From positions 870,001-902,000 of the forward strand of contig JAIUPJ010000001.1 of assembly GCA_020160975.1 (NCBI GenBank): 32,000 bases of DNA, read 5' to 3'. Of this stretch, positions 1 through 30,335 are shown piece by piece. This DNA comes from Candidatus Saccharimonadota bacterium. GTDB taxonomy: Bacteria > Patescibacteriota > Saccharimonadia > Saccharimonadales > Saccharimonadaceae. The notes under the pieces were generated by a model. The model worked only from the letters and a program-made list of their open reading frames with translations. It made no database searches and had not been told where the DNA came from. Numbering within the stretch: the stretch's first letter is position 1; the number at the start of each line of letters is the position of its first letter. Position numbers and translations under genes: made by a program.

Positions 1-2889
1 AACGATTGGAGCAAGGAAGTTTCGACGCACTTGCCGATCTATTACAAATGGACACAGTGGATTTTCTCAGAGATGTACCGTGCAGGACTTGCCTACCAAG
101 AACCACGCATGCAATGGTGGTGCACCAAGTGCCAAACGGTGCTCGCGAATGAGCAAGTAATCGACGGTAAATGTTGGCGCCACGACGCTCCTGATGACCC
201 GGAAGTCGCCAAAAAAGAAGTCAAACAGTGGTTTTTCAAAGTGACAGAATATGCCGATGAGATGCTCGAAGCCACCGATGCGCTCGACTGGAGCGAGGTA
301 GTAAAGGCTGCCCAGAAGAACTGGATAGGCAAGAGTGAGGGTGCGGAGGTACAGTTTGAAGTTCTGAGCTCTACTTTCTTAGAGAAAAAGGAGTCTAAAG
401 ATTCGCTGAAGTTTACCCCAGAGCTGACCAAAATGATCATCGACGGTAGCAAGACGTCCACTATTCGTCTTGAGCCAAAAAATGTAAACGTCGGGGACAC
501 AGTGGAGCTACTGACGCGCGATGGGGAAAGCGTTGACGCATTTGGATATGCGAAAATTACAAATATTCGCGCCATGAAGCTTGTTGATATTCCTAATGAC
601 CTGGCAGGTCACGAGCCGCTTAAAGATGATGCAGATAAACTGGCGCGATACCGTGGATATTATACGGACAACGTAACGCTTGAGACTGAATTTACCATTT
701 ACGACTTTGATAACTTAGAACTCAGATCTCAGAACGTAGAGCTCGATCCCATCACTGTCTTTACCACTCGTCCCGATACCATTTTTGGCGCGACGTTTTT
801 GGTGCTGGCGCCGGAGCACGAGTTGGTCAAACAAATTGTGACAGATGATGCGCGTGATGTCGTAGAGCAATATGTCAAGGATTCACTGAAAAAGTCAGAA
901 CTCGAGCGTCAAGAGACTAAAGAAAAGACCGGTGTGCCGACAGGCGCGCATGCCATCAATCCCGCAACGGGCGAGAAAATCCCTATCTGGGTGGCTGACT
1001 ATGTATTGGGTGGCTATGGCACTGGGGCTATCATGGCGGTGCCGGCACACGACGAGCGAGACCGGGAATTTGCGGAGAAGTTTGATTTGCCAGTAGTGCA
1101 AGTTGTGGCCGAAACGCTGCTTGATCAAGAAAATCCGCCTCGTGACGACAAGAAAAATACTCGGCGCAACGTAGCGATGTGCATTATCGACCATCCAACC
1201 GATGGGACGTTTTTGACGCTCAAATGGCATAAGCAACCATGGCATAATTTCGTGATGGGTGGCATCGAAGAAGGCGAGTCGCTCGAGGCCGCCGCGCGCC
1301 GAGAAATCACCGAAGAAACCGGCTATGTCGACATGTCGTTTGTCGAAAGTATGCCAGTCCCCCTCAATAGTAAGTTTTACGCAGCGCATAAAGACGTCAA
1401 CCGCGACATTATCACGCATGTCGTCCGGTTCAAACTCAATAGTCTCGATACGGTTGCGACTGCACGCGAGGAGCATGAGGATTTCGAGCCAATGTGGGTA
1501 GAGAAGTCAGCACTTTCTCAGTTGCAACCAGTCGCCGAGCTCGGGCATATTCTTCGTTGGCTCGACGGTGAAACACCGATTTATCATGGAGAAGGCGTAC
1601 TGGTAAATTCCGGCAAATTCGATGGTATGAGTAGTAGCGAGGCGCGCGAACAGATCGTGGCGTGGCTCGAGCAGCAAGGTGTCGGCAAAGCCAAAATAAC
1701 GTATAAAATCCGAGACTGGAGTGTCAGCCGCCAGCGCTATTGGGGCGCGCCGATTCCGGTCGTTCACTGCGACAAGGATGGTATCGTACTGGTGCCCGAT
1801 GACCTATTGCCAGTGATTTTGCCGGAGCTCGAAGATTTTGCCCCGAGCGGTGATGGTCGCAGCGCCCTGGCGCGCGCGACAGAGTGGCTCAACACGACCT
1901 GCCCAACATGTGGTGGCCCGTCAACCCGCGAGACCGATACGCTCGACACCTACATTTGTAGTAGTTGGTATTTCCTCAGGTATTTCGATGGTGCCAATGA
2001 GGAAAAGATTTTTGCCCCTGAAGTGGTCAACAAATGGATGCCGATAGACTTTTACAATGGCGGCGACCACGCGACGGCGCACATGATGTATGCACGATTT
2101 GTTACCCGCTTTTTTTGGCATCAAGGGCTGCTTGATAATCCCGAGCCGTTCAAAAAATTCCTCTTCAACGGCAAAGTGACCGCCAGTGACGGCACGATGT
2201 TCAGCAAGAGCAAAGGTAATGGTGTCGATCCACTCGAGATCATTAACCAAGGGTATGGCGCTGACGCCCTCCGGACGTATCTGATGTTTGCCGCGCCACT
2301 CGAGCAATGGATTCGCTGGGATTCACAGGGCGTACCTGGCACCTACCGCTTCCTCACTCGCGTGTGGAATTTGGCGCAAGAGTATCTTGCTGCCGACAAA
2401 TCACGCGTTGACGACACAGCACTGAGGCTTGTTCATCCTGTGATCAAAAAAGTTACAGGCGACCTGGAGGAGCAAAAGTACAACACAGCAATCGCCGCCA
2501 TGATGGAGTTGACGAACAATCTCTACGCGCTCAAGGCCAAAAATGGTTTCAGCAGTGACTGGCAGTTCGCGCTCGAGAGCCTGGTAGCGCTCGTAGCGCC
2601 TTTTGCGCCACACATGGCCGATCAGCTGTGGCACGACCTTGGTCATGAGACGAGTGTACAGCGCGATAGCTGGCCGCAGTGGGATGACGCTTACCTGACG
2701 AGTGACACAATGACGATTATTGTACAAGTCAATGGCAAATTGCGCGCCAAGCTGGAAATTGCAGTAGATACGAACGAAGTTGAAATCAAAAAACTCGCCC
2801 TAGAAGACGAGAACGTGCAGAAGTTTGTGACTAACGAGCCAAAGAAGGTTATTTACGTTAAAAACAAGCTCGTTAGTATTGTCGTGTAG
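1..2889 (+). CDS. leuS: Leucine--tRNA ligase, 5'-truncated by the window edge (frame is open from nt 1), carrying two extra inserted domains
   Basis: Class I LeuRS motifs: NWIGKSEGAEV, TTRPDTIFGATFLVLAPEH (CP1 editing start), GTGAIMAVPAHDERD, YKIRDWSVSRQRYWGAPIP, a CPTCGG zinc motif, a KMSKS-like FSKSKGNG, and a C-terminal VQVNGKLR tRNA-binding domain. Stop TAG at 2887-2889. Confidence 0.95.
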   Translation, partial: NDWSKEVSTHLPIYYKWTQWIFSEMYRAGLAYQEPRMQWWCTKCQTVLANEQVIDGKCWRHDAPDDPEVAKKEVKQWFFKVTEYADEMLEATDALDWSEVVKAAQKNWIGKSEGAEVQFEVLSSTFLEKKESKDSLKFTPELTKMIIDGSKTSTIRLEPKNVNVGDTVELLTRDGESVDAFGYAKITNIRAMKLVDIPNDLAGHEPLKDDADKLARYRGYYTDNVTLETEFTIYDFDNLELRSQNVELDPITVFTTRPDTIFGATFLVLAPEHELVKQIVTDDARDVVEQYVKDSLKKSELERQETKEKTGVPTGAHAINPATGEKIPIWVADYVLGGYGTGAIMAVPAHDERDREFAEKFDLPVVQVVAETLLDQENPPRDDKKNTRRNVAMCIIDHPTDGTFLTLKWHKQPWHNFVMGGIEEGESLEAAARREITEETGYVDMSFVESMPVPLNSKFYAAHKDVNRDIITHVVRFKLNSLDTVATAREEHEDFEPMWVEKSALSQLQPVAELGHILRWLDGETPIYHGEGVLVNSGKFDGMSSSEAREQIVAWLEQQGVGKAKITYKIRDWSVSRQRYWGAPIPVVHCDKDGIVLVPDDLLPVILPELEDFAPSGDGRSALARATEWLNTTCPTCGGPSTRETDTLDTYICSSWYFLRYFDGANEEKIFAPEVVNKWMPIDFYNGGDHATAHMMYARFVTRFFWHQGLLDNPEPFKKFLFNGKVTASDGTMFSKSKGNGVDPLEIINQGYGADALRTYLMFAAPLEQWIRWDSQGVPGTYRFLTRVWNLAQEYLAADKSRVDDTALRLVHPVIKKVTGDLEEQKYNTAIAAMMELTNNLYALKAKNGFSSDWQFALESLVALVAPFAPHMADQLWHDLGHETSVQRDSWPQWDDAYLTSDTMTIIVQVNGKLRAKLEIAVDTNEVEIKKLALEDENVQKFVTNEPKKVIYVKNKLVSIVV
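403..714 (+). other. ASCH/PUA-like domain inserted in LeuS between GAEVQFEV and the TTRPDT editing-domain start (boundaries approximate)
   Basis: About 125 extra residues compared with E. coli and T. thermophilus LeuRS as I recall them. Pattern FTPELTKMIIDGSKTSTIRL..NVGDTVEL..FGYAKITNIR..FTIYDF resembles the ASCH signature (I-x-x-G-x-K-T-x-x-R, GD, beta-barrel). Confidence 0.5.
1162..1566 (+). other. Nudix hydrolase domain inserted in LeuS directly after the editing domain (boundaries approximate)
   Basis: Perfect Nudix box GX5EX7REUXEEXGU: GGIEEGESLEAAARREITEETGY, nt 1258-1326. About 150 extra residues lie between FDLPVVQVV and GVLVNSGKFDG, which are nearly contiguous in ordinary LeuRS. Confidence 0.8.
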
Positions 2890-2910: not shown

Positions 2911-2929
2911 CCCCGCCTATTCGGCGGGG
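2911..2929. terminator. GC hairpin between convergent leuS and the minus-strand small ORF
   Basis: ccccgcc (2911-2917) / ggcgggg (2923-2929), loop tattc. It overlaps the stop of the minus ORF. No clear U-run. Confidence 0.4.
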
Positions 2930-3183
2930 TCGAACCCGGTGATGTGGACGTAGGCTCCGCGGAGGACCAGTCCTCCTGCTGCGGCGAGGTTGAGTGCCGC
3001 AAAAGGCACCAGGGCCATCTGGCTGTTCGCCAGCGCCACGATACCGATGCCGATGCCGATGCCTAGGGCGGTGATCGCGAGGGTCGCGAGCCGCTGCACG
3101 GGATGGGCGAAGGTGCTAATGACTGAAGCCATGAGCACAATCTCCAGCCCGAGGCTGGCAAGGGTCCAGATGAAGTAGCTCAT
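2917..3183 (-). CDS. Small hydrophobic membrane protein (88 aa), G+C-rich
   Basis: Six-frame ORF, almost entirely hydrophobic with a GIGIGIGI run. 41/60 G+C in nt 2941-3000 by hand count. Purine-rich SD-like stretch (gaaaggaagaag) upstream. Confidence 0.6.
   Translation of the reverse strand: MSYFIWTLASLGLEIVLMASVISTFAHPVQRLATLAITALGIGIGIGIVALANSQMALVPFAALNLAAAGGLVLRGAYVHITGFDPAE
3040..3063. repeat. Hexanucleotide tandem repeat (gatacc gatgcc gatgcc gatgcc)
   Basis: Read directly. It encodes the GIGIGIGI run of the minus-strand ORF, and the unit length keeps the reading frame. Confidence 0.9.
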
Positions 3184-3374: not shown

Positions 3375-3521
3375 ATGGCTCAGCCAAAGAAACAGAGCAG
3401 CCCGCGCAAGACCGGTCTCCGCCGGAGTCATTTGCGACTCGAGCTGGCTCGTCGTGTTAACGCGAAATCACCAGTCAAGGTGAAGACCACCAAGAACGAA
3501 ACTGGTAAGAAAAAAGACTAA
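3375..3521 (+). CDS. rpmF: Ribosomal protein L32-like (48 aa), below the ORF-track size cutoff
   Basis: Manual translation: MAQPKKQSSPRKTGLRRSHLRLELARRVNAKSPVKVKTTKNETGKKKD. The N-terminus matches the L32 pattern (K-x-S/T-x-x-R/K-x-G-x-RRSH-x-x-L). Strong SD AAGGAG 8 nt upstream. The C-terminal part is not L32-like, so the identity is tentative. Confidence 0.6.
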   Translation: MAQPKKQSSPRKTGLRRSHLRLELARRVNAKSPVKVKTTKNETGKKKD

Positions 3522-3566: not shown

Positions 3567-4028
3567 ATGGCCTCAAACCGTCATCTTGGACGCATCGTCG
3601 CATTACAGACACTCTACGAATTTGAATTTCGTAGTCAATCTGGAGATCCGGATGTCAATGTGGATGAAATCCTCGGTCGCAACCTCGCGAGATACGAGAC
3701 GGCGATTGATGATACGGCGTTTGTTAAAGACCTCGTCGAAGGCGTGCTTGCTGCGCGAGACGAACTGGATGCAAAGCTTCAGCCGATTGCCCCAGAATGG
3801 CCGCTCGAGCAGATCGCACGGATTGATCGCGCCGTACTGCGGCTTGGCTTGTATGAATTACTACACCGCAGCGACAAAGTGCCGCCAAAGGTAGCGATCA
3901 ATGAAGCGGTTGAGCTGGCAAAAGCATTTGGTTCTGATAACTCGAGTAAGTTCATTAACGGCGTGCTTGGCACGGCGTTTCGAACACTGCTAGGAGAGTC
4001 AGATAATGCCGAAACCACAAAAGCCTAG
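3567..4028 (+). CDS. nusB: Transcription antitermination factor NusB
   Basis: LQTLYEFEF near the N-terminus and [25 protein letters not shown], the classic NusB C-terminal motif. Confidence 0.9.
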
Positions 4029-4503
4029 GCTCGAAACATTCAAGAAATACTTCAAGCCCAAGGCATCAATACAAGAGATTGTCCGCGAGCCAACTGCTGG
4101 TGGCATCGTGTTTCGTCATGGCGAAAAAGATATTGAAATTCTACTGATTCAGGATGCAAAAGATCGCTGGACGATCCCCAAAGGCCATATCGAAGAGGGT
4201 GAGACGGCTGTCCAGACTGCCCGTCGTGAGATTGGCGAAGAAGCCGGTTTGACCGACGTTGATATGCTGGGGTGGCTCGGCAAGATTCACTTTCGCTACC
4301 GCCGTATCGACCGACTGGTGCTCATGACAACGCAGATTTATCTGGTGCGAGTGCGCACTGATGGTAATGAGATCAAGAAGGAAGAGTGGATGAATGGCAT
4401 TAAATGGTTTTCGTTCAATGAAGCGCTAGACCTGATCGAGTATGAAGATATCGCGAAGCTAATGCTCAAAGCCAAAACCCGGGTGCGCGAGGAGAACTTG
4501 TAG
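4006..4503 (+). CDS. Nudix hydrolase (165 aa), overlapping the nusB 3' end by 23 nt
   Basis: Nudix box [25 protein letters not shown] aggagag at 3991-3997. Confidence 0.85.
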
Positions 4504-10088: not shown

Positions 10089-11408
10089 ATGAAAATGAAT
10101 ATCACCACGCCACGAATCCCAAGTGGATTTAACGAATATTTGCCAGCTGAACAGATTGAGTTTAATCGTTTGCTTGATATCGTTCGATCGGTATACGAAA
10201 AATATGGTTTTGCTCCGCTTGATACTCCAATACTCGAGCTGAGTGAGGTGCTGCTCGCCAAAGGTGGCGGCGAGACGGAGCAGCAAGTGTATCGATTTGA
10301 GCGGGGCCGCAATGACCTGACAATGCGCTATGATTTGACGGTACCGCTAGCACGGTATGTGGCGCAGCACGAAGGTGCACTCACAATTCCATTTCGACGC
10401 TATCAAATCGGCAAAGTTTACCGAGCTGAGCGGGCCCAGGCTGGACGTTTTCGTGAATTTTATCAATGCGATATTGATGTCATCGGTAGCAGGAGTACGT
10501 TGATTGATGCGGAACTGCCGGTAATCATCAACGAGATATTTGAACGATTTGGATTTGGCGAGTTTACGATTCGTCTCAATAACCGTATGATTTTGAATGG
10601 TTTTTTTGAGGCGCTGGGACTGAGCGAGCAATCAAAAGACGTGTTGCGAGTGGTTGATAAGATAGAAAAGATTTCTGTTGATTCGTTCGTCGATGAGCTT
10701 ACACAGCTAGGGCTGACCCAAGAGCAGATTGCAACACTCCAAACGTTTGTGTCACTGTCTGGCACGAACGACGAGGTGCTGGCTTCGCTCGAAAGTCTCG
10801 GGATTGACTCGCCAGATTTCCGGCTCGGGGTCGAAAAATTGAGCGAGCTTGTCGCATCGCTCCGTGCGATGAAAGTTCCGGAATCACGGTTCTTGATTGA
10901 CTTGAAGATTGCGCGTGGACTTGATTACTACACCGGCACCGTCTACGAGACAATACTCGACGAACATCCGTCAATTGGAAGCGTGTGCAGTGGCGGTCGT
11001 TACGATGATTTGGCTAGCCACTACTCTAAAACACAGCTACCTGGGGTGGGTGTTTCGATCGGGCTGACAAGGTTATTTTATCAGCTCAAGGAGGCAGGTC
11101 TCGTAACAGCTGATACTCAGTCGCTTTCGCGAGTGGTGGTGCTGCCGATGACTCCGGCAGAGTATTCGCTGGCTGGAGAAGTCGCAACTGACCTGCGATG
11201 TGCAGGAGTGGCGACAATTCTCTATAGTGAGCCCAATGATCTTAGCAAAAAGATGAAGTATGTCGATAAAATGGGCTGTACCTACGCAGTAGTGATAGGA
11301 GCGGATGAAGCGCGGAACGGTGTGGTGTCGATCAAGGATATGCGCTCAGGCGAGCAACGCCAGGCACCGCTAGATGATCTCGTTGCCTCTCTTGCGGATT
11401 TGAAATAA
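10089..11408 (+). CDS. hisS: Histidine--tRNA ligase
   Basis: Class II motifs: RYQIGKVYRAERAQAGRFREFYQCDIDVIG, GGRYDDL, GVGVSIGLTRL, plus a C-terminal anticodon-binding domain. Confidence 0.9.
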   Translation: MKMNITTPRIPSGFNEYLPAEQIEFNRLLDIVRSVYEKYGFAPLDTPILELSEVLLAKGGGETEQQVYRFERGRNDLTMRYDLTVPLARYVAQHEGALTIPFRRYQIGKVYRAERAQAGRFREFYQCDIDVIGSRSTLIDAELPVIINEIFERFGFGEFTIRLNNRMILNGFFEALGLSEQSKDVLRVVDKIEKISVDSFVDELTQLGLTQEQIATLQTFVSLSGTNDEVLASLESLGIDSPDFRLGVEKLSELVASLRAMKVPESRFLIDLKIARGLDYYTGTVYETILDEHPSIGSVCSGGRYDDLASHYSKTQLPGVGVSIGLTRLFYQLKEAGLVTADTQSLSRVVVLPMTPAEYSLAGEVATDLRCAGVATILYSEPNDLSKKMKYVDKMGCTYAVVIGADEARNGVVSIKDMRSGEQRQAPLDDLVASLADLK

Positions 11409-15790: not shown

Positions 15791-16831
15791 ATGAATATTG
15801 ACGAACTGACCTCTGCGTTGACTGAGCGCGTAGCGCAATCTGATAATCCGGCTGAAGTGCTGAGAGCACCGGAATTTCGTGAGCTCTATGCACAAATTCC
15901 CCAGCAGGAACCAGAAGAGCGGGCATCGTTTGGACAGCGGGTGAACGCGATGAAGCAAGCAGTTGAAGCAGCGGTCGAGGCCAGAAAAGCCGAGTTAAGT
16001 TCGGTAGATGTATGTCCGCTCGACATAACAGCGCCGATGGATGTCAATGCGTCAGCGCCAAAATTCCTGTCAGCCGAACAGGGTACGATCCACCCGCTGA
16101 TGGCCGAGATGCAGACGCTCAGCGAAATCTTTGGCCGTATGGGATTTGTGACAGAAGACTCGCGCGAAATTGATGATCAGTATCACATGTTTGAGACGCT
16201 GAACTTCCCGAAAGGTCACCCGGCGCGTGATGACTACGACACGTTCATGACGGTTGAGACCGATGCCGATGGCGATCCGCTGATTGCTCCGGCGCACACC
16301 AGTACGATGCAGAATCGCATCTTGAAAAAATATCGTGAAAATCTAGAGCGCGGTGAAGCGATTGCGGCAGTAGTCCCAGACCGTGTTTTCCGCAACGAAG
16401 ATCTGGATGCGCGTCATGAGCACACGTTCTACCAGTTCGAAGGCATTTATGTCGCTAAGGGTGTACACGCCGGTATGCTGATCGCGACGCTGCAAAAGTT
16501 TCTTGAAGAATATTACGGCAAGAAACTCGACGTGCGGGTGAATCCATTCTATTTCCCATTTACTGAGCCAAGCTTCGAATTTTCGCTCAGCTGCCCCTTC
16601 TGTGAAGGTACAGACAAGGACTGTAAGGTCTGTGGTGGCGAAGGCTGGATTGAGCTACTTGGCTGCGGTATGATTCATCCGAATGTACTGAAGGCTGCCG
16701 ATATCGACCCAAATATCTACACTGGGTTTGCTTGGGGCGGCGGTATTGACCGCCTGGTGATGATGAAATACGGTATCGAGGATGTGCGACATTTTCAAAG
16801 TGCGAAACTAGATTTTTTGGAGCAATTTTAG
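15791..16831 (+). CDS. pheS: Phenylalanine--tRNA ligase alpha subunit
   Basis: Class II motifs: HPARDDYDTF, FRNEDLDARHEHTFYQFEG, GWIELLGCGMIHPNVL, GFAWGGGIDRLVM. Confidence 0.95.
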   Translation: MNIDELTSALTERVAQSDNPAEVLRAPEFRELYAQIPQQEPEERASFGQRVNAMKQAVEAAVEARKAELSSVDVCPLDITAPMDVNASAPKFLSAEQGTIHPLMAEMQTLSEIFGRMGFVTEDSREIDDQYHMFETLNFPKGHPARDDYDTFMTVETDADGDPLIAPAHTSTMQNRILKKYRENLERGEAIAAVVPDRVFRNEDLDARHEHTFYQFEGIYVAKGVHAGMLIATLQKFLEEYYGKKLDVRVNPFYFPFTEPSFEFSLSCPFCEGTDKDCKVCGGEGWIELLGCGMIHPNVLKAADIDPNIYTGFAWGGGIDRLVMMKYGIEDVRHFQSAKLDFLEQF

Positions 16832-17162: not shown

Positions 17163-17578
17163 ATCCATTAGTGCAGAAGGCAAAAGAGTTGCTTGAGGCA
17201 CGATTTATGCCCCCTTATCATACGGTGGCTGCAGTGATTGTTACGAGTGACGGTAGCGAATATTCTGGTATCAATATCGACCACTTTAGTGGCTACTTGT
17301 GTGCTGAGGCATCAGCACTTGCAGCGGCTATCAATGACGGAAAAATGGCATTTGATTCAGTTGTTGCTGTTGGACAAAATGAAAATAATGAGTTTGATGT
17401 CATCAATCCCTGTGGTAAATGCCGGCAGCTGCTGCATGATTTTGCTCCAGGCATAAAAGTGTTAGTGAAAGAAAATGACGTCGAATCTACGCTAGGAATC
17501 AATGAGCTATTACCGCATAGCTTCAAGCGTCGACAGGAAAAAATCAGACGAGCACGGCGAGGAGAAGATGTTATATGA
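17159..17578 (+). CDS. cdd: Cytidine / blasticidin-S deaminase family (homotetrameric type)
   Basis: Zinc motifs CAE (LCAEASAL) and PCGKCRQ. ATGA overlaps at both ends (17159-17162 and 17575-17578). Confidence 0.8.
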   Translation: MNPLVQKAKELLEARFMPPYHTVAAVIVTSDGSEYSGINIDHFSGYLCAEASALAAAINDGKMAFDSVVAVGQNENNEFDVINPCGKCRQLLHDFAPGIKVLVKENDVESTLGINELLPHSFKRRQEKIRRARRGEDVI

Positions 17579-20091
17579 AAGTTAGTTTAAACACAATCAA
17601 ACAATTTATCGACTTTGAATTGCCGCCAGTCGATGAGCTGGTGAAGCGAATTAATGAGCAGCTTGGTGGAGTTGAAGAAGTTGTTGATCTGAGTGAAAAG
17701 TACAAAGATGCGAAAATTGTGCGCGTAGTTGAATGTGAAAAGCATCCCGATGCTGATCGACTTTCTGTTTGCAAAGTCGACGTCGGCTCTGGTGAGCTAG
17801 TGCAAGTCGTCTGTGGTGCGCCAAATGTCCACGCAGATATGTGGGCGATATGGCTACCACCGGAGTCAACGGTACCAAGTAGCTATGGCACCAATGAGCC
17901 CTTTGTATTGGGGGCACGTGAGCTGCGTGGTGTGATGAGCAACGGTATGCTTGCGGCGGGCGACGAGCTGGGCATCAACGGTGACCATGACGGCATCATC
18001 GAAATTACCGAAAAAGATTTGCTCCTCGGTATTAAGCTAAAAGCCGGCGCTAGTTTTGCAGAGACTTTCGGCCTGGATGACACTACGATCGATATCGAAA
18101 ACAAGATGTTTACCCACCGTCCTGATTTATTCGGGCAGCTGGGTGTCGCGCGTGAAATCGCCGGAATATTCGGCCATCAATTCACCAGTCCAGAGTGGTA
18201 TAGAAAAGTAGAATATGGAATAGAGAATGCTGAAAATAGCGACATGCTGCCTCTTGAAGTATTTAATGATGCCTCAGAAAAAGCTCCGAGATTCATGGCC
18301 GTCGCCATAAAAGATGTCACAGTTGGTCCAAGCCCTCTGTGGTTGCAGTGTGAGCTAGTGCGTCTCGGTGGTAAATCGATCAACAACATTGTCGACATCA
18401 CGAACTATGTCATGCTCCTGACCTCGCAACCGACGCATGCCTATGATTACGACAAGTTGCGCGGACACAAGCTGGGTGTGCGTATGGCGCATGATGGCGA
18501 AAAAGCCACACTACTCAACGACAAAACGTATGAACTAACTTCTGATGATATCGTGATTGTCGACGCCGAAGGGCCAGTCGGTCTCGCCGGCATCATGGGT
18601 GGCTCCAACAGCGAAGTTTCGCCTGAGACAAAAAATATTGTGCTAGAAGTTGCGAACTTTGATATGTACGCAGTGCGCAAAAGTAGCATGCGACATGGGT
18701 TATTTACCGATGCCCTAACGCGCTTTAACAAAGGCCAATCGCCGTTGCAAAACCCAATTGTGATGAGCCAGCTTCAGAATTTTATCACTGGAATAGCCGG
18801 TGGCGAACAGGCAAGCGAAGTGTTTGACAAGAAAGCATTTGATGACGAGAAGGATGAAGATGTTTTGGGCGCTAAATGGCTGCCAGGCACTATCTCGGCC
18901 GATTTTATCAATCAGCGTCTTGGTCTTTCGCTGAATGACAGTGAAATTGCTCAGCTGCTTGAAAATGTAGAATTCCACGCGCACGAAATGGGCGAGATGA
19001 ACGAGATATGTTTCACCGCGCCATTTTGGCGTACTGATATTGAGCAGCCAGAGGATATTGTCGAGGAAGTCGGACGATTGTATGGGTTTGACAAACTACC
19101 CCTTGAACTACCACAGCGGAGTGTCACGCCCGCGCCACAAAACACTTCACGCATACTGAAGCGGCAAATTCGCGATAATCTCAAACATGCGGGAGCAAAC
19201 GAAGTGCTGACCTATAGTTTTGTCCACGAGAATGTGCTGAAAAAGGCTGGTCAAGATCCGACACATGCATACCGCCTCGGTAATGCCCTCAGCCCAGACC
19301 TACAGTATTATCGACTGAGCCTCTTGCCGAGTTTACTCGATAAAGTGCACATGAATATCAAGGCTGGTCATGACATGTTCGCGCTCTACGAGATCGGCAA
19401 GACTCATTTCAAGGGCGAGATGGATGCGGTTGAACCAAATGTGCCGAACGAAGATACGCATGTCGCCCTGGTCGTGACGGCAAATGAAAAAGCGGCTCAG
19501 CCCGGTGCGGCATTTTATCTGGCAAAAAAATACCTCCATGGGTTGATTGGCTTTGCGACAATTGAACTCAAAAAAATGACTGAGTTTGACATGGCAAGTG
19601 ATGTATGGGGTGCGCAACTCTCTGCACCATACGAGCCCAAGCGTTCGGCAGTGCTAGTGCATGATGGTAAAATTTGGGGCGTTGTCGGCGAATTCCGTAC
19701 GGGTGTCAGACAGGGCTTCAAGTTGCCGGCGTATAGCGCGGGATTTGAAGTACACCTGGATCTTCTGGCGCAGAATTTTGCGCAGTACACTCCACTCAGC
19801 CGTTTCCCGTCGAATTCACAAGATATCTCGTTGCGATCAAACAACAAAGTGTCGTACCGGGATATCTACGGCGTCACTATCGCCGCACTAGAAGAGGCAG
19901 GCGCAGACTTGCAGACGAAAGTTGAGCCCATCAGCATCTATCAATCGAGCACTGACAGCAGCACGAAGACGACGACGTTTCGTATCACCTTTACTCACTA
20001 TGACAAAACACTGACCGATGACGATATCAAGCCGCTGATGGATCATGTGGCGGGGGTGGCGCTGAGCCGGCTGTCTGCGGAGCGTACATAG
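17575..20091 (+). CDS. pheT: Phenylalanine--tRNA ligase beta subunit
   Basis: N-terminal tRNA-binding OB fold (KHPDADRLSVCKVDVG..VQVVCGAPN), B3/4 (TNYVMLLTSQPTHAYD), B5, and a C-terminal ferredoxin-fold anticodon-binding domain. Confidence 0.95.
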   Translation: MKVSLNTIKQFIDFELPPVDELVKRINEQLGGVEEVVDLSEKYKDAKIVRVVECEKHPDADRLSVCKVDVGSGELVQVVCGAPNVHADMWAIWLPPESTVPSSYGTNEPFVLGARELRGVMSNGMLAAGDELGINGDHDGIIEITEKDLLLGIKLKAGASFAETFGLDDTTIDIENKMFTHRPDLFGQLGVAREIAGIFGHQFTSPEWYRKVEYGIENAENSDMLPLEVFNDASEKAPRFMAVAIKDVTVGPSPLWLQCELVRLGGKSINNIVDITNYVMLLTSQPTHAYDYDKLRGHKLGVRMAHDGEKATLLNDKTYELTSDDIVIVDAEGPVGLAGIMGGSNSEVSPETKNIVLEVANFDMYAVRKSSMRHGLFTDALTRFNKGQSPLQNPIVMSQLQNFITGIAGGEQASEVFDKKAFDDEKDEDVLGAKWLPGTISADFINQRLGLSLNDSEIAQLLENVEFHAHEMGEMNEICFTAPFWRTDIEQPEDIVEEVGRLYGFDKLPLELPQRSVTPAPQNTSRILKRQIRDNLKHAGANEVLTYSFVHENVLKKAGQDPTHAYRLGNALSPDLQYYRLSLLPSLLDKVHMNIKAGHDMFALYEIGKTHFKGEMDAVEPNVPNEDTHVALVVTANEKAAQPGAAFYLAKKYLHGLIGFATIELKKMTEFDMASDVWGAQLSAPYEPKRSAVLVHDGKIWGVVGEFRTGVRQGFKLPAYSAGFEVHLDLLAQNFAQYTPLSRFPSNSQDISLRSNNKVSYRDIYGVTIAALEEAGADLQTKVEPISIYQSSTDSSTKTTTFRITFTHYDKTLTDDDIKPLMDHVAGVALSRLSAERT

Positions 20092-20105: not shown

Positions 20106-21371
20106 ATGAATACGCTAAAAAAGTTTCGTTTTGCACTGAGTTCATATACTGATGAGCGCGAACACAAAGTCGGGCGATTCTTTCAGAAACTACGAGAACA
20201 TCATTCGCGTATCCTCGTGCGAACGAAACTGATGGATCTGATGCAAGATAACATCGCGGTGATCAATCTTTGGACGGAGTACCGTTACAAAGGCTATGTA
20301 TATCTCAAAAAGTCAGAGCGCAAAAGGTTGTATAAGAACCTCGAATGTATCGCCAAAGATTTCGAGGCATTTAAAACAACGCACCGAGCCGATGACGAAC
20401 AGTCACGAAAAAAGATTGCGGGTATAAGCAGCGCGCAGCCTGAGATAACCCGTGTGGTGCTTCTTGCGACAATCATGGAGTATCTTAGCCCGAGGCGTGG
20501 AGTTTACCAGTACCGCGCGTCAAGTTCGTTCGGACGATTACTGCGCGATCCTGCTACTGAAACATTAATCGGTGACTGCAACCAAATCGTCACGTTATAT
20601 ATTTACCTGTACTCACGTTATTTTGCAGTTAGTGATTTGAAGTTGCGGCTGCTACCCGAGCATGTCGCGCTGCATTTTCAAGGTATCGACATCGAGGCAA
20701 CGACGGGTGAGTTTGCGAATTATCAGAACACAAAATATGCCGCACTCCAGCCAATAGAAGAGATCGTGAGCATCAACTTGCTCGATATCACCGACGAATA
20801 TTTTGCCAAAAACGACGTCTCACCAAAAGAGTTTTTGCAAGCGTCACGCTTTGCAGCTGTTCTCAGTCACGACCGTGATATCGTCACGAAGAATCTCGAA
20901 GTTACCTACACTAGACTCGTGAATGCAGCGATGAAACGTGATGATTACAAGGGCGCGCTGACACTTGCGCACCAGAGCCGAGATATGCAGCTCATTTCGG
21001 TTGTCGGGCACAACGGTGCACTATATTTTATGAAGCAGCATGAATTTAAAACGTCGCGAAAATTTGCGCATCACGCCTTGAAGCGAGCTGAGCTTGTTCG
21101 CGACAGCTACCGCGCAGAAGGAAAATACCTGTACGACGAGCATCGTTACCACGAAGCTATCAAAGCATTTGAGCGATACGGCAATCGTGAGCTGGTGGCG
21201 AAATGTTACGAAGCGCTGTTTTTTGAAGAGCAGAATAAACTCGGCAGTACCCTCACGATCGAGAGTATTCAGCATCACAAAAGTGCGATAAAAACGATGC
21301 ACGGTTATGCAAAAAAGTCCGGTAGCAAACAGCTGATTCAGCACGTAGACTCACTCGTAAAATATTTGTGA
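20106..21371 (+). CDS. Hypothetical protein: transglutaminase-like core (SirB1/Transglut_core2-like) plus C-terminal helical/TPR-like repeats (421 aa)
   Basis: GDCNQIVTLYIYLYSRYF...LLPEHVALHF matches the G-x-C-x3-[IL]-x2-LY...P-x-H-[FV]-x-L pattern of transglutaminase-like cysteine-fold proteins. The C-terminal half is helical (YKGALTLA, YHEAIKAFERYGN). AT-richer than its neighbours. Confidence 0.7.
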   Translation: MNTLKKFRFALSSYTDEREHKVGRFFQKLREHHSRILVRTKLMDLMQDNIAVINLWTEYRYKGYVYLKKSERKRLYKNLECIAKDFEAFKTTHRADDEQSRKKIAGISSAQPEITRVVLLATIMEYLSPRRGVYQYRASSSFGRLLRDPATETLIGDCNQIVTLYIYLYSRYFAVSDLKLRLLPEHVALHFQGIDIEATTGEFANYQNTKYAALQPIEEIVSINLLDITDEYFAKNDVSPKEFLQASRFAAVLSHDRDIVTKNLEVTYTRLVNAAMKRDDYKGALTLAHQSRDMQLISVVGHNGALYFMKQHEFKTSRKFAHHALKRAELVRDSYRAEGKYLYDEHRYHEAIKAFERYGNRELVAKCYEALFFEEQNKLGSTLTIESIQHHKSAIKTMHGYAKKSGSKQLIQHVDSLVKYL

Positions 21372-21382
21372 AGACATGACAA

Positions 21383-21443
21383 AGCCCCGCGGGGAGGCTC
21401 TGCCATCGCATGGGTGCGAGAAGTGCAGAACCAGCGCGGGGCT
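21383..21443. terminator. GC-rich structured region between convergent genes (possible terminator)
   Basis: agccccgcg (21383-21391) pairs with cgcggggct (21435-21443). Inner hairpin tcgca-tggg-tgcga. No U-run. Confidence 0.3.
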
Positions 21444-22026
21444 AGCTCTCAGGATCAACTACGATCTTGCAGATCGGAATCGGGCGGCTGGTCAGTTGCG
21501 ATGTGTCGATGCCAGGCGCGTTGAGGGCCAGCTTGACTGTTACGGACTCCACCGCGGTATCGATGTCGTAGCAGTCGTCGATCAACTCCTTGTGTTCTGG
21601 CCTCTGCTGGGTGTAGAGCCGCAGATCCATTGTGTCGAGCTCCTGGACGACGCGGGGCCGGAAGAACTTGCGCACGATGCCAAGTTTGCGAGCAAGAGCA
21701 AGGAGCCGATCTTGATCGAGCTTCTCGCCGCCACCAACCTTGCGCGACGCGATAACACCGTAGAGCAACTTGACGGACTTGTCGGTGAAGACAGTCGTCC
21801 GGTTTTCCTCGATGATCTTGCGGATCTGGGCGATGGTGTCAGCGATGTCGCGACCGGCACTGGTGAGATCGGGTTCGTACTTCGCCTTGGCGAGCGCGAT
21901 CTCCGCCTCCAGCTTGGCGTTCATGCCATTGCGGTCGTTGGTTCGAGTTGCCAGGAACTTGATGAGGCTGTTCAGCCGCTCCAGCAAGTCCTGACGGTTT
22001 TCGATAGTCTTTGGCACCATGGCCAC
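21442..22026 (-). CDS. Mu Gam-like (host-nuclease inhibitor / DNA-end-binding) protein, G+C-rich
   Basis: AGGAGG SD 5 nt upstream of the ATG. An N-terminal coiled coil is followed by KSVKLLYGVIASRK...LALARKLGIVRKFFRPR, matching the Gam-family architecture as I recall it. 39/60 and 33/60 G+C in nt 21481-21600, against 28/60 and 20/60 in the adjacent gene. Confidence 0.7.
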   Translation of the reverse strand: MAMVPKTIENRQDLLERLNSLIKFLATRTNDRNGMNAKLEAEIALAKAKYEPDLTSAGRDIADTIAQIRKIIEENRTTVFTDKSVKLLYGVIASRKVGGGEKLDQDRLLALARKLGIVRKFFRPRVVQELDTMDLRLYTQQRPEHKELIDDCYDIDTAVESVTVKLALNAPGIDTSQLTSRPIPICKIVVDPES

Positions 22027-22105
22027 CTCCTAATTGTTGAAGAGCGTTGCTATACTATATCATGTTTTGTAAAAATAAACATATAGAAACATTTAAATAT
22101 TTCGA

Positions 22106-25647: not shown

Positions 25648-26559
25648 ATGAAAAAGTACCGCGTGATGTTTGGGGTAGCCGCTACGATTATTATCTTGTC
25701 ATTGTTAGGGTATTTATTGGCGCGGACGGGACATTATGACATCTTGCAGCCAATGGGTGATATCGCCAAGCAGCAACGCAACTTACTGTACTTTGCATTG
25801 CTGCTTTGTGCTGTAGTGGTGGTACCGGTATTTATCATGCTCGGTAGTTTCGCGTGGAAATTCCGTGAAGGCAACAAAAAGGCGCACTACAAACCAGAAT
25901 GGAGTGAAAATAAACTCCTTGAGGTTGTGTGGTGGGGGATTCCGATCGTCATTATCAGTATCCTGGCGGTTGTTGCATGGTCTACAAGCCATTCGCTCGA
26001 CCCGTATCGTCCTATTGCCTCCAACAAAAAAGCCATTGAAGTGCAAGTTGTCGCGTTGCAGTGGAAATGGCTATTTATTTACCCAGAACTTGGCGTGGCG
26101 ACACTCAATCAATTGCCAGTACCCGTCGGAACGCCGGTGCATTTTACACTAACTGCTGATGCGCCGATGAGCGCGTTTTGGGTGCCAACGCTTGGTTCGC
26201 AAATCTACACGATGAATGGCATGAGTAGCCAGCTTTACTTGATCGCCGACCATGCGGGCGATTTCCCTGGATACACGACGAATATCAATGGCGAGGGATA
26301 TGCTGACATGAAATTCATGGTACATGCGCAACCTGAAGCAGCATTTAATTCGTGGGTTGAACGAGCTAGGGGGTCGTCGCAGATGATGGACGCTGCCGCC
26401 TACGAGACACTTGCAAAACCAGGAGTCATTACCGAAGAGCGAGAATATATGCTGATGGACGACAACTTGTATAGTAAAGTTCTAGAAAAATACATGGCAC
26501 CAAAAGACCAGCAAATGGATCACAGCTCGTCGACGATGCCGGTAATGGAGGGAATGTAA
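25648..26559 (+). CDS. cyoA: Cytochrome bo3-type ubiquinol oxidase subunit II
   Basis: Two N-terminal TM helices and a cupredoxin-like domain. ALQWKWLFIYPELGVATLNQL resembles E. coli CyoA (DWKWFFIYPEQGIATVNE). Operon context. Confidence 0.9.
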   Translation: MKKYRVMFGVAATIIILSLLGYLLARTGHYDILQPMGDIAKQQRNLLYFALLLCAVVVVPVFIMLGSFAWKFREGNKKAHYKPEWSENKLLEVVWWGIPIVIISILAVVAWSTSHSLDPYRPIASNKKAIEVQVVALQWKWLFIYPELGVATLNQLPVPVGTPVHFTLTADAPMSAFWVPTLGSQIYTMNGMSSQLYLIADHAGDFPGYTTNINGEGYADMKFMVHAQPEAAFNSWVERARGSSQMMDAAAYETLAKPGVITEEREYMLMDDNLYSKVLEKYMAPKDQQMDHSSSTMPVMEGM

Positions 26560-28514
26560 TGTTTGGTCGACTGAGCTTGGATTATCTGCCACACGAACCG
26601 GCAACTATTGGAGCAGCCGTTGCTATGCCATTGGCGCTGATCGCTATTGCTGTCGCACTGACGTACTATAAGAAATGGCGCTGGCTCTGGCGTGAGTGGC
26701 TGACATCGCTTGATGCCAAAAAAATCGGTGTCATGTATATCGTGGTGGCTATCGTAATGTTGCTTCGTGGCGTGGCGGACGCGGTGATGCTTCGTATGCA
26801 GACGGCGCTAGCGGTGGGTGATAATCCCGGGCTGTTTAGCGTAGACACATTTCAGCAGGTATTTACTGCTCACGGCACAATTATGATTTTTTTCGTGGCG
26901 ATGGGGTTGATGTTTGGGATTATCAATGTCGTCATGCCGCTACAAATTGGCGCGCGAGATGTGGCATTTCCGTGGCTAAACTCAGTCAGTTTTTGGTTGT
27001 TTGTGGCGGGGATGATTCTGGTTAACGGGGCGCTACTATTTGGTGGCTTTAGCAACGGTGGTTGGCTCGGCTATCCTCCGCTCACAGAGCTGCAGTACAA
27101 TCCCGGCCCGGGGGTTGACTACTGGATTTGGGCACTGCAAATTGCGGGCATTGGCTCGCTGCTCAGCGGTATTAATTTCACAGTGACAATCCTCAAAAAA
27201 CGCGCACCTGGCATGACGCTGATGAAAATGCCGATTTTTGTCTGGAGTGTGTTGGTGACGATGGTGTTGGTCATGATTTCATTCCCCATGCTGACGAGCG
27301 CACTCAGCCTTCTCGCACTTGACCGCACACTCGACATGCATTTCTTTACCAGCAATATGGGCGGGAACCCGATGATGTATATCAACCTTATATGGGCATG
27401 GGGACATCCCGAAGTGTATATTTTAGTCCTACCGGCATTTGGGATATATAGTGAGGTAGTAGCGACGTTCGCGCGCAAAAAATTGTTTGGCTACAAAACG
27501 ATGGTCGCTGCGTTGGTTGCGATCATGTTCTTCAGTTTTGTGGTATGGCAGCACCACTTCTTCACGATGGGAGCGGGTGCGAATGTTAATGCGTTCTTTG
27601 GCATTATGACGATGATCATCGCTATCCCGACGGGCGTCAAAATCTTTAACTGGCTCTTTACGATGTACCGTGGCCGGATTCGTTTCACCGCGCCGTTTGT
27701 CTGGTTTATGTGTTTTGTCGTGACCTTTACGATTGGTGGAGTGACGGGCGTATTGATGGCAGTGCCAGCGCTTGACTTCCAAATTCATAACAGCATGTTC
27801 TTGGTGGCGCACTTCCATAATGTGATTATTGGCGGCGTAGTCTTTGGTTATCTCGCAGGAATTACCTATTGGTTTCCAAAAGTACTCGGGTTTCGTTTGC
27901 ATGACCGCCTGGGGCGCTGGTCAGCCTATGCTTGGCAGGTGGGGTTTTTGTTGGCATTTCTGCCGCTCTACGCGCTGGGCCTAATGGGCGCGGTGCGGCG
28001 GATCGATCACTACACTGACCCGAGCTGGCAGCCGTTCTTTATTGTGTCGGCTGTCGGTGTGCTGACGATCGCACTGGGTATTGGCTTGTTTGTATTGCAG
28101 ATCGGAGTGAGTGTGTGGCAACGTAAGAAGCTGCGTGATACAAATGGCGATCCCTGGGACGGCCGTACATTGGAGTGGTCGGTGCCATCGCCTGCGCCCC
28201 ACTATAACTTTGCAATCCAGCCAACAGTGAGCCGGATTGATGAATGGTGGTACCAGAAAAAAGATGGCGTGGCACGACCTACTCGAAACGACTACAAAGA
28301 CATTGTTCTGCCGAAAAATAGTGGGCTAGGAGTGGCGATCGGTCTGTTGTGCTTTGTATTTGGCGGCGCAGTGATTTGGCACCTATGGTGGCTCGCGGCG
28401 TTAGCATTTGTCGGTGTGATCGTGGTGATACTGGTGCGAACCTTTGATGAAAATACTGAGTATACGATGACAGCTGAAAAGCTGTACCAAGAGGCGAAGG
28501 AGGCGCGGGTATGA
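26559..28514 (+). CDS. cyoB: Cytochrome bo3-type ubiquinol oxidase subunit I
   Basis: Long runs match E. coli CyoB as I recall it: MFG.LSLD, EWLTS.D.K..G.MYI.VAIVMLLRG, YINLIWAWGHPEVYIL, HHFFTMGAGANVNAFFGI.TMIIAIPTGVKIFNWLFTMY.GRI, HFHNVIIGGVVFG. Confidence 0.97.
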   Translation: MFGRLSLDYLPHEPATIGAAVAMPLALIAIAVALTYYKKWRWLWREWLTSLDAKKIGVMYIVVAIVMLLRGVADAVMLRMQTALAVGDNPGLFSVDTFQQVFTAHGTIMIFFVAMGLMFGIINVVMPLQIGARDVAFPWLNSVSFWLFVAGMILVNGALLFGGFSNGGWLGYPPLTELQYNPGPGVDYWIWALQIAGIGSLLSGINFTVTILKKRAPGMTLMKMPIFVWSVLVTMVLVMISFPMLTSALSLLALDRTLDMHFFTSNMGGNPMMYINLIWAWGHPEVYILVLPAFGIYSEVVATFARKKLFGYKTMVAALVAIMFFSFVVWQHHFFTMGAGANVNAFFGIMTMIIAIPTGVKIFNWLFTMYRGRIRFTAPFVWFMCFVVTFTIGGVTGVLMAVPALDFQIHNSMFLVAHFHNVIIGGVVFGYLAGITYWFPKVLGFRLHDRLGRWSAYAWQVGFLLAFLPLYALGLMGAVRRIDHYTDPSWQPFFIVSAVGVLTIALGIGLFVLQIGVSVWQRKKLRDTNGDPWDGRTLEWSVPSPAPHYNFAIQPTVSRIDEWWYQKKDGVARPTRNDYKDIVLPKNSGLGVAIGLLCFVFGGAVIWHLWWLAALAFVGVIVVILVRTFDENTEYTMTAEKLYQEAKEARV

Positions 28515-29086
28515 TCAGAACGAAAGAGCAAGAAAGTGCCCCGATGCTAGGATTTTGGTTGTACCTGATGACAGATTTGATGCTATTTGCTACGGTATTT
28601 GCAACCTTTATGGTGTTGCGGCACGCTACAGCAGGCGGGCCAAGCGCGCCAGAACTATTCTCCATGAAAACGGTGCTGACTGAAACAATGATATTGCTAG
28701 CAAGTAGCTTGTTCTGCGGTCTGGCATGGCTGGCACTTCGTCACAAAAAACGCACAGATTTCTTGATGTATAGCATCGCGACATTGCTGGCTGGCGCAGT
28801 GTTTTTGGCAATCGAGATCCAAGAGTTTGCTCAGCTTGTGCATGAAGGATTCGGGCCAAGCACGAGCGCGTTTTTGAGTAGCTTTTTCACACTTGTTGGT
28901 ATGCATGGATTTCACATTGCGATTGGATTACTATGGGGGATAGCACTGTTGATTATGTTTGCGAAAAAGGGTTTCGGGTCGTCGCTCGCAAGAAAGTTTG
29001 CGCTGTTTGCGGTATTTTGGCATTTTCTTGATATTGTCTGGATATTCATTTTCACCATTGTGTATGTTATAGGAGTGCACGCATGA
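28511..29086 (+). CDS. cyoC: Cytochrome bo3-type ubiquinol oxidase subunit III
   Basis: Five-TM protein with LGFWLYLMTDLMLFATVFATF and FWHFLDIVWIFIFT motifs. ATGA overlap with cyoB. Confidence 0.9.
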   Translation: MIRTKEQESAPMLGFWLYLMTDLMLFATVFATFMVLRHATAGGPSAPELFSMKTVLTETMILLASSLFCGLAWLALRHKKRTDFLMYSIATLLAGAVFLAIEIQEFAQLVHEGFGPSTSAFLSSFFTLVGMHGFHIAIGLLWGIALLIMFAKKGFGSSLARKFALFAVFWHFLDIVWIFIFTIVYVIGVHA

Positions 29087-30309: not shown

Positions 30310-30335
30310 GCGGTATCTTACAATAGGGGAAGTTT

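Follow-up and report, generated by a model that had tools for sequence, protein, structure and literature searches.

Few enzymes are as conserved as the aminoacyl-tRNA synthetases (aaRSs), the editing domains of which serve as drug targets and as models of fidelity. In leucyl-tRNA synthetase (LeuRS), the parts played in editing by TTRPDT, a motif rich in threonine, by the GTG region and by the conserved Asp of HDxRD are well established. The lineage-specific CP1 insertions of eukaryal and archaeal LeuRSs are, to our knowledge, short structural elements and not catalytic domains. Here, we analysed the leuS gene at the start of a 32,000-nucleotide (nt) stretch of a Candidatus Saccharimonadota genome (contig JAIUPJ010000001.1, positions 870,001 to 902,000; hereafter the window). 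The encoded enzyme resembles the bacterial LeuRSs of the E. coli and T. thermophilus type (TIGR00396, PF13603) in family, domain order and hallmarks (ZN-1, TTRPDT, GTG...HDxRD, RQRYWG, the anticodon-binding and C-terminal domains), but differs from them in carrying two complete foreign enzyme domains, an ASCH domain and a Nudix hydrolase domain, in CP1 loops that have 8 and ~27 residues in plain relatives.

Both domains have free-standing counterparts. Characterized ASCH relatives of the YqfB type are N4-acylcytidine amidohydrolases and tRNA N4-acetylcytidine (ac4C) deacetylases. A recent preprint defines the conserved ASCH octapeptide as GxKxx[E/T/S]xR, assigns its GK[T/S]R type to the YqfB-type ac4C amidohydrolases (catalytic residues K21, T24, E74 and R26 in YqfB), and reports that all 19 ASCH proteins assayed, of the GKTR and GKER types, removed ac4C from tRNA (bioRxiv 10.64898/2026.02.27.708502). 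E. coli YqfB (9kyf, 9kyh; NF003443) is the best fold match of the inserted ASCH domain and has in common with it a GKTR-type octapeptide (GxKxxTxR) and a similar size (~105 residues). However, YqfB is a free protein, whereas the ASCH domain of the window is internal to a synthetase, is ~20% identical to YqfB and misses the cut-off of the equivalog model. The Nudix insert shares the fold and a complete Nudix box with RppH and with small Nudix hydrolases (MutT-like, NudI/YfaO and CT771), and differs from them in being embedded in LeuRS, in its 20-24% identity and in missing all curated cut-offs.

A class I synthetase with an unrelated catalytic domain is also represented by the NCBI exception model NF040702 (isoleucine--tRNA ligase, N-acetyltransferase domain-containing), which, compared by its model listing alone, concerns another synthetase and another domain. 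Inteins and the Rickettsia palindromic elements are alike in occupying fixed points of essential proteins, in their patchy occurrence among close relatives and in the palindromic border DNA seen in some lineages. Unlike these elements, the inserts of the window are conserved enzymes retained in the mature protein, contain no Hint or endonuclease domain and mostly have no flanking repeats. Full-text searches of the literature, which covered a minority of the subscription journals, returned no report of a LeuRS with a Nudix or ASCH domain inside it. Synthetases with extra domains are already known, and the present case, in which whole catalytic domains sit within CP1 and turn over like cassettes across a bacterial radiation, adds a new form of them. 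With a probability of roughly 55%, we favour the interpretation of LeuRS as a scaffold on which house-cleaning or salvage hydrolases are exchanged, its two CP1 loops holding independently acquired and probably active modules.

Two enzyme domains nested in CP1

The leuS gene corresponds to an open reading frame (ORF) in frame 1 of the window (1-2889, forward strand), which runs off the 5' end and encodes 962 residues of a bacterial-type LeuRS whose N-terminus lies before the window. A full-length relative (P0001) with 98% identity to this protein has 1080 residues. The NCBIfam model TIGR00396 (leuS_bact) matches the window protein in four stretches with 747.7 bits (cut-off 548.4) and the full-length relative with 904 bits. 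Pfam (tRNA-synt_1, tRNA-synt_1_2, Anticodon_1) places a class I catalytic domain, an anticodon-binding domain, an editing domain and the two foreign domains in the protein. The editing domain (PF13603) is recognized with E=4e-59 in three stretches, the best of which, residues 249-374, covers profile positions 21-145 of 185. Its motifs are intact in the translation, with TTRPDT at residues 255-260 and GTGAIMAVPAHDERD at residues 340-354.

The insertion sites were mapped by alignment to plain 811-residue LeuRS relatives, with P0024 as the numbering reference (P and L numbers refer to the proteins and loci compared). In the plain forms, site 1 is a loop of 8 residues that connects GAEVQFEV, the first strand of CP1, to the strand that runs into TTRPDT, and site 2 is a loop of ~27 residues after LPVVQVV. 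In the window, the N-terminal tether of CP1 and its first strand, NWIGKSEGAEVQFEV (residues 107-121, nt 319-363), directly precede site 1 according to this alignment and the motif coordinates. The ASCH module with its linkers occupies residues 122-250 and ends four residues upstream of TTRPDT. It consists of a left linker, LSSTFLEKKESK (364-399), the ASCH domain itself (residues 134-240, nt 400-720) and a right linker, LRSQNVELDP (721-750), the two linkers each containing one arm of an inverted repeat discussed below. The CP1 editing core follows at 751-1113, as judged from the best PF13603 stretch and the motifs TTRPDT (nt 763-780) and GTGAIMAVPAHDERD (nt 1018-1062). The Nudix module (residues 372-527, nt ~1114-1581) begins 17 residues past HDERD (residues 350-354). 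According to the same alignment, the C-terminal part of CP1 (the helix YHGEGVLVNSG...) and the C-terminal tether into the catalytic domain, KITYKIRDWSVSRQRYWG, are encoded at 1582-1746; 37 further CP1 residues separate the Nudix module from the tether strand KITYKIRDW, which starts at residue 565.

The initial annotation of this DNA had recognized both foreign domains, and they are real, with Pfam scores above the cut-offs and intact signatures. It had also placed them exactly at the two tethers of CP1; in the alignment with plain LeuRSs both are instead nested within CP1, near the two editing motifs in sequence. The architecture is far beyond chance and was found again in many independent assemblies. 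The nearest proteins and loci come from metagenome-assembled genomes of Candidatus Saccharibacteria or Saccharimonadales, such as UBA1949 (70% identity over the region of the inserts) and Ca. Saccharimonas aalborgensis.

The ASCH family (PF04266) is detected at residues 136-202 with E=1.9e-4 and 22.6 bits in the whole protein, and with E=9.4e-6 and 26.7 bits when the segment is searched alone (cut-off 21.2); the same family is precomputed for many homologues of the window LeuRS. Its octapeptide, GSKTSTIR (nt 445-468), fits the conserved ASCH pattern GxKxx[E/T/S]xR and is of the GK[T/S]R type. Thirty-two non-identical ASCH inserts of LeuRSs align readily, with 44-70% identity to that of the window. 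Twelve positions are invariant in these homologues (D1, K4, F5, T6, L9, K18, R23, K27, R40, Y88, Y101 and F103, in insert numbering) and four are conserved in at least 90% (G16, T21, G70 and H71). The presumed Glu, in the GHE motif (nt 607-615), is present in most of them and replaced or deleted in 6 of the 32. A weak match to the YqfB equivalog model NF003443 (insert positions 4-74 on profile positions 7-76) places K18, T21 and R23 on K21, T24 and R26 of YqfB.

Sequence searches of the PDB with the ASCH insert (phmmer and profile) gave no match to YqfB; apart from one spurious entry, they yielded a single ASCH structure of marginal significance (3iuw, E=0.31). The fold assignment was therefore based on a fold search with an AlphaFold2 model, built from the alignment of the inserts, with a mean confidence (pLDDT) of 96.4. 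The three best PDB matches are E. coli YqfB structures with and without ac4C (9kyf, 9kyh), with TM scores of 0.75-0.78, root-mean-square deviations of 2.6-2.8 Å over ~104 columns and ~20% identity. Other ASCH structures rank behind YqfB, and the first ~20 matches are all ASCH proteins, which have a PUA-like beta-barrel fold.

Free-standing ASCH relatives measure 105-125 residues and reach 53% identity. A search of a database of 5.8e9 proteins with the ASCH profile gave only 10 hits and, owing to a limit of its word index, missed the LeuRS inserts, but it helped to find free-standing relatives. One of these (P0128; L001, 5001-7738) lies in a series of small genes, among them those for a cupin, a 23S_rRNA_IVP protein and, next to the ASCH gene, a 2-thiouracil desulfurase (PF04463) and a Ser_hydrolase, the last of a family that is also seen as a LeuRS insert. 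Another stands upstream of genes for a GNAT protein, a histidine phosphatase and an inositol monophosphatase.

The Nudix domain (PF00293) is found at residues 390-520 with E=2.8e-13 and 50.5 bits in the whole protein, and with 2.8e-15 and 56.9 bits for the segment alone (cut-off 21.1). Its box, GGIEEGESLEAAARREITEETGY (residues 420-442, nt 1258-1326), is an exact fit to G-x5-E-x7-REUxEExGU, and the strict box is present in 61 of the 78 homologous site-2 inserts. The closest PDB structures to its model (pLDDT 88) are E. coli RppH entries, including a complex with diadenosine tetraphosphate (Ap4A; 7sp3), with TM scores of 0.62-0.69 and identities of 20-24%. The lead of RppH over MutT-like, NudI/YfaO and CT771 (Ap4A hydrolase) structures is small, and the Ap4A-bound entries 7sp3 and 4mpo stand among many similar fold matches.

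A phmmer search of 1.84 billion (1.84e9) cluster representatives with the Nudix insert gave 362 hits at E<=1e-3, and this number marks the subfamily as small. The best 150 of these 362 hits are mostly LeuRSs or LeuRS fragments, with ~30-45 free-standing proteins of 150-200 residues and one prolyl-tRNA synthetase (ProRS). Free-standing members are up to 45% identical to the window type (P0142) and 57% identical to another insert type (P0227). Some insert clusters are closer to free-standing Nudix proteins than to other insert clusters, which points to repeated capture or exchange.

Another Nudix gene, separate from the LeuRS feature, lies downstream of leuS in the window (4006-4503, forward strand; 165 residues, Pfam E=4.7e-19) and has a syntenic counterpart in the relative L102. 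As noted in the initial annotation, it encodes a Nudix protein whose box resembles that of the insert. The likeness is confined to the box region, the only part aligned by BLASTP (15 of 29 residues identical), and the protein shows only generic Nudix similarity to any cluster of inserts. We therefore rejected it as a donor or close paralogue of the insert.

Independent turnover and maintenance of the modules

The distribution of the inserts was examined in the 121 closest LeuRSs, a sample that is neither random nor phylogenetically independent. Both modules are present in 14 of these proteins, only ASCH in 22, only Nudix in 62 and neither in 23 (odds ratio 0.24). Site 1 is empty (8 residues) in the plain forms and otherwise holds ASCH (36 proteins), an alpha/beta hydrolase of the Ser_hydrolase type with the motif GHSLGG (two), unassigned domains (two) or short low-complexity segments. 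Site 2 is empty (27 residues) in the plain forms and otherwise holds Nudix (76) or a 137-residue domain (two). The 76 Nudix inserts fall into at least 14 clusters that are <45% identical to one another. Many close relatives have a plain 811-residue LeuRS, and near relatives differ in insert content.

On the tree of the LeuRS core the insert states are scattered, with parsimony requiring at least 17 changes for the presence of ASCH, at least 14 for the presence of Nudix and at least 45 for the type of site-2 insert. When all pairs are considered, there is essentially no correlation between the distances of the inserts and those of the cores (Spearman coefficients of 0.22 for ASCH and -0.17 for Nudix). 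Single pairs show the same discordance in both directions: the window and P0003 have cores that are ~80-92% identical and Nudix inserts that are 28% identical, whereas the window and P0015 have cores of 52-74% and Nudix inserts of 68% identity. P0004 and P0022, at a core distance of 0.055, carry Nudix modules of different clusters (<45% identical). Nudix modules with <30% identity also substitute for each other in LeuRS cores that share ~85% identity or more.

A pair with and without ASCH (P0008 and the plain P0032) differs by 1.6% in the core protein and by ~0-22% per 100-nt block in DNA, with the blocks arranged as a mosaic. We considered this pair as a strain-level event between near-identical cores and rejected it, as the ~98% identity of the proteins is accompanied by ~78-100% identity of the DNA and no junction repeats were found. 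Its mosaic divergence indicates a gain or loss that is recent and not a strain-level event.

Thus, the ASCH domain, CP1 and the Nudix domain are not one co-evolved cassette. The single co-functioning unit proposed in the initial annotation is unsupported by the odds ratio of 0.24, by the discordant distances and by the unrelated hydrolases found at the same sites. What it had named as evidence against such a unit, independent and sporadic inserts with degraded motifs (neutral domain accretion), holds in part. The inserts are indeed independent and sporadic, and a degraded box is seen in one clade of 11 sequences, whereas the motifs of the window's own type are intact, which argues against simple neutral decay.

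Both modules are maintained by purifying selection. Compared with the 98%-identical relative L102, the ASCH domain of the window has 8 synonymous and 1 non-synonymous substitution (ratio of non-synonymous to synonymous rates, omega, ~0.03) and the Nudix domain 6 and 1 (omega ~0.04), against 37 and 19 in the core outside CP1 (omega ~0.13); the counts are small. Between the inserts of the window and those of UBA1949, the non-synonymous and synonymous divergences (pN and pS) are ~0.24 and ~0.8, respectively.

In a wider survey, 199 LeuRS-like sequences were aligned to plain LeuRS, inserts of at least 60 residues were listed and Pfam checks were added. In P0024 numbering, the inserts at or just before site 1 include ASCH, Ser_hydrolase, one or two Nudix domains, HAD, a Ham1-like domain, DUF559 and a domain without assignment (domain X). 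Site 2 holds Nudix (153 sequences) or the 137-residue domain Y (P0082, P0108). Near residue 440, Ser_hydrolase, a 130-residue domain with a KKTIETR motif or domain X was found, near residue 484 HAD, and near residue 646 Ham1/ITPase (Pfam E=3e-58). In some LeuRSs Nudix occupies both sites, and in some there are three Nudix domains (two or three in P0131-P0134 and P0146). Among LeuRSs of other Patescibacteria, Ham1/ITPase, HAD, Ser_hydrolase and DUF559 domains occur at five or more insertion points in P0161/P0281 (1330 residues), P0141, P0220, P0275, P0156, P0186, P0274, P0276, P0205 and P0160. Nearly all identifiable modules are small hydrolases.

Three of the inserted domains, of ~120-137 residues, are recurrent, namely X (P0093, P0102, P0148, P0253), Y (P0082, P0108) and the KKTIETR domain (P0161, P0162, P0177, P0187, P0263), and these and other such inserts have no match in Pfam or NCBIfam. 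The KKTIETR motif resembles a GKER-type ASCH octapeptide; a comparison of this domain with the ASCH profile by hhalign gave a probability of 11%, and Pfam gave no hit.

In GTDB genomes, Nudix-bearing LeuRSs occur in Saccharibacteria, Moranbacteria, Nomurabacteria, Paceibacterota, Giovannonibacteria, Staskawiczbacteria, Yonathbacteria and Parcubacteria, with a few bins labelled otherwise. Annotation pipelines detect the inserted domains and misname the LeuRS proteins: NCBI lists one from Paceibacterota as 'RdgB/HAM1 family non-canonical purine NTP pyrophosphatase', and other insert-bearing LeuRSs are publicly named 'NUDIX domain-containing protein'.

Outside LeuRS, a Nudix domain of the same subfamily lies between the anticodon-binding and C-terminal domains in a clade of archaeal-type ProRSs (P0201 and P0289-P0292), the plain relatives of which carry Nanoarchaeota or Woesearchaeota labels. 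For a further ProRS (P0376), a B3/4 domain is recorded. The other synthetases of the window, histidyl-tRNA synthetase (10089-11408) and the alpha (PheS, 15791-16831) and beta (PheT, 17575-20091) subunits of phenylalanyl-tRNA synthetase, are of ordinary length and show no Pfam domain beyond the usual ones; in this window, the decoration is thus specific to LeuRS.

LeuRS as a putative scaffold for exchangeable hydrolases

The scaffold interpretation has the best support, from the combination of free-standing relatives, independent turnover, purifying selection and the hydrolase families of the modules. Their activities and substrates, the reason for tethering and the mode of exchange we infer as follows. 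The leuS product is a functional bacterial-type LeuRS with an intact CP1 editing domain, the first module a YqfB-type (GKTR) ASCH domain and the second a putative Nudix pyrophosphohydrolase with a complete box and an RppH-nearest fold. Both modules are most likely active enzymes with the same functions as their free-standing relatives. For ASCH this would be the deacylation of N4-acyl-cytidine, free or in RNA, and for Nudix the cleavage of a nucleoside diphosphate linked to another moiety, such as a non-canonical nucleoside triphosphate, a dinucleoside tetraphosphate (Np4N) or an RNA 5' end. They would act while tethered to an essential, constitutively made protein.

More widely, Patescibacteria appear to have a few fixed LeuRS insertion points that repeatedly capture small hydrolases from free-standing genes; the captured modules would then be lost, replaced or passed between divergent leuS genes, probably through recombination in the conserved flanks. 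Across this radiation of ultra-small bacteria, complete and selectively maintained hydrolase domains are repeatedly placed inside the editing domain of LeuRS and shuffled between strains. If the modules act independently of LeuRS, genome-reduced symbionts would be keeping and trading house-cleaning and nucleoside-salvage enzymes sheltered in an essential gene.

Several observations weigh against this interpretation. The YqfB equivalog model NF003443 gives the ASCH insert only 14.9 bits (E=0.025), far from its cut-off of 93, and because of this weak match at the sequence level we classify the insert as a YqfB-like ASCH domain and not as a YqfB orthologue. The Nudix insert stays below every NCBIfam cut-off, the best models being those for RppH (NF001936 and related; 34 bits against a cut-off of 118). 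With the small margin between fold matches and no curated cut-off reached, no substrate was assigned to it; judging from the model, the fold is compatible with a possible substrate of the Np4N or RNA-end type. A clade of 11 site-2 inserts (Nud4; P0059, P0067, P0070, P0078, P0085, P0086, P0089, P0099, P0106, P0107 and P0111) has kept the domain with a degraded box, GGIExGQTPExAAxMEIxEEAAL, in which E is changed to Q, R to M or A and G to A, so that catalysis is not always required. The trees behind the turnover estimates are neighbour-joining trees on protein distances over 647 core columns. The house-cleaning or salvage theme (Nudix, Ham1/ITPase, HAD, and ASCH beside a thiouracil desulfurase) is read from family names and established knowledge. 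Finally, a purely passive carrier explains neither the strong preference of the Nudix subfamily for LeuRS, with a small ProRS clade in addition, nor the attachment points directly beside the two editing motifs, and both features may point to a connection to the chemistry of tRNA or of aaRSs.

Such a link is central to the best of the alternatives, which we nevertheless regard as improbable. Here, the modules would act on LeuRS-bound tRNA-Leu or Leu-tRNA-Leu, and CP1 would carry exchangeable heads for repair or proofreading. ASCH would either remove an N-acyl group, such as N4-acetyl, or grip a cytidine of the CCA end, and Nudix would process a group containing pyrophosphate (such as a cap, or a pyrophosphate added by a toxin) at the adjoining 5' or 3' end. 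The distances of four residues to TTRPDT and 17 residues from HDERD are consistent with this, as are the near-exclusive occurrence of the Nudix subfamily in aaRSs (LeuRS and a few ProRSs) or as free-standing proteins, the RNA 5'-end enzyme RppH as source of the nearest Nudix structures, and the esterase-type alpha/beta hydrolase with intact GHSLGG that site 1 may hold instead of ASCH. Turnover at the strain level is typical of conflict-related functions, and the ASCH proteins assayed in the preprint all deacetylate tRNA (bioRxiv 10.64898/2026.02.27.708502). However, in bacteria ac4C is located at position 34 of elongator tRNA-Met, and none is known in tRNA-Leu (bioRxiv 10.64898/2026.02.27.708502). 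Furthermore, Ham1 ITPase, HAD phosphatases and DUF559 endonuclease-like domains, which have no obvious tRNA-end chemistry, are also inserted in LeuRS, some of them far from CP1, and a plain 811-residue LeuRS suffices in many close relatives. If the modules do act on tRNA-Leu or on by-products of the synthetase, they would constitute a natural experiment in expanded proofreading or RNA repair.

A bolder version joins this chemistry to the exchange of modules. The LeuRS of Patescibacteria would then be a cassette platform at the protein level, with a few fixed loops, two of which adjoin the editing pocket, and with swappable hydrolase heads (ASCH, Nudix, esterase, HAD, ITPase) captured from free-standing genes, traded among strains, framed in some lineages by hairpin-forming border repeats and acting on the tRNA-Leu end or on aaRS by-products in repair, proofreading or defence against toxins. 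We consider this quite unlikely; if true, it would be a new way to diversify an essential translation enzyme.

It is very doubtful that the inserts are passengers or selfish accretions, that is, segments that permissive loops tolerate, that bring no LeuRS-related benefit and that are sheltered in an essential gene from the deletion bias of shrinking genomes. They would have spread by recombination or a mobile mechanism, which in some lineages would have left its traces as inverted repeats at the borders of ASCH. The sporadic distribution of many unrelated module types, the uncorrelated insert and core distances and the degraded Nudix box of one clade are all consistent with such a history, as is the presence of repeats around ASCH in three lineages, each with a different sequence.

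In the window, the coding sequences of the two ASCH linkers form an inverted repeat of 18 nt (366-383 and 727-744), with 16 of 18 positions complementary. A repeat search and a count of the arm pattern found no copy in the 32 kb beyond the two flanking ones (0.03 expected by chance). The UBA1949 locus L005, identical in L086, has flanking inverted repeats of 29 nt (3076-3104 and 3424-3452), and L008 has repeats of 24 nt (3052-3075 and 3398-3421). Those of L005 and L008 are built of heptamer repeats, and the sequences are wholly different among the window, L005/L086 and L008. The predicted RNA folds close with the linker stem, with z = -1.9 for the window segment (355-755) and z = -3.05 for that of L005. 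These repeats may be the trace of an insertion or exchange mechanism.

Against a passenger history stand purifying selection on the modules as strong as that on the core and the conservation of their catalytic residues. No transposase, Hint (intein) or homing-endonuclease domain was found by Pfam, in which the inserted segments give only ASCH and NUDIX. Flanking repeats are absent from 14 of 18 ASCH-bearing loci, where the linkers are short, and from the Nudix flanks, and the pair of loci with and without an insert (L103/L104) has no direct repeats at the insertion junction. We rejected the idea that inverted repeats mark the modules in general, because such repeats reach significance in no more than three ASCH lineages and one DUF559-like insert and the alpha/beta-hydrolase inserts also lack them. 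Separately, some LeuRSs have short low-complexity inserts of 12-42 residues at site 1 ('ETASR...RAADVS'; P0075, P0088, P0116, P0059 and P0011); judged from the peptides alone, their halves look like reverse-complement codings, and these inserts may be translated palindromic DNA.

As improbable as the passenger history is an integrated ASCH-CP1-Nudix cassette for proofreading or nucleotide signalling that hydrolyses aminoacyl-adenylate or LeuRS-made Ap4A in cis: the intact Nudix box, the solved Ap4A complex 7sp3 among the top RppH-like fold matches and the related Nudix domains in two different aaRS families agree with it, but ASCH and Nudix co-occur no more than expected, their histories differ and are discordant, modules that are not pyrophosphatases substitute at the same sites, and the Nud4 clade has lost key residues of the box. 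Aminoacyl-adenylate is, moreover, a mixed anhydride and not a nucleoside diphosphate linked to another moiety, which makes its hydrolysis by a Nudix enzyme chemically unlikely; hydrolysis of Ap4A or of an RNA end by the Nudix insert is possible, as far as its modelled fold indicates.

Other features of the window

Directly downstream of leuS, a hydrophobic ORF of 88 residues with a GIGIGIGI run and no Pfam match lies on the reverse strand (2917-3183). A small opposite-strand ORF is found at the equivalent position past leuS in the relatives L102, L103 and L104. Two adjacent ORFs on the forward strand (20106-21371 and 21376-22086; 421 and 236 residues) have no Pfam match at E<=1e-4. Towards the end of the window, genes for a haem-copper oxidase (COX2-like, COX1 and COX3) are followed by those for a UbiA-family prenyltransferase and a pyridine-nucleotide-disulphide oxidoreductase (25648-31532), and this region is an aerobic respiratory module in a Saccharibacterium.

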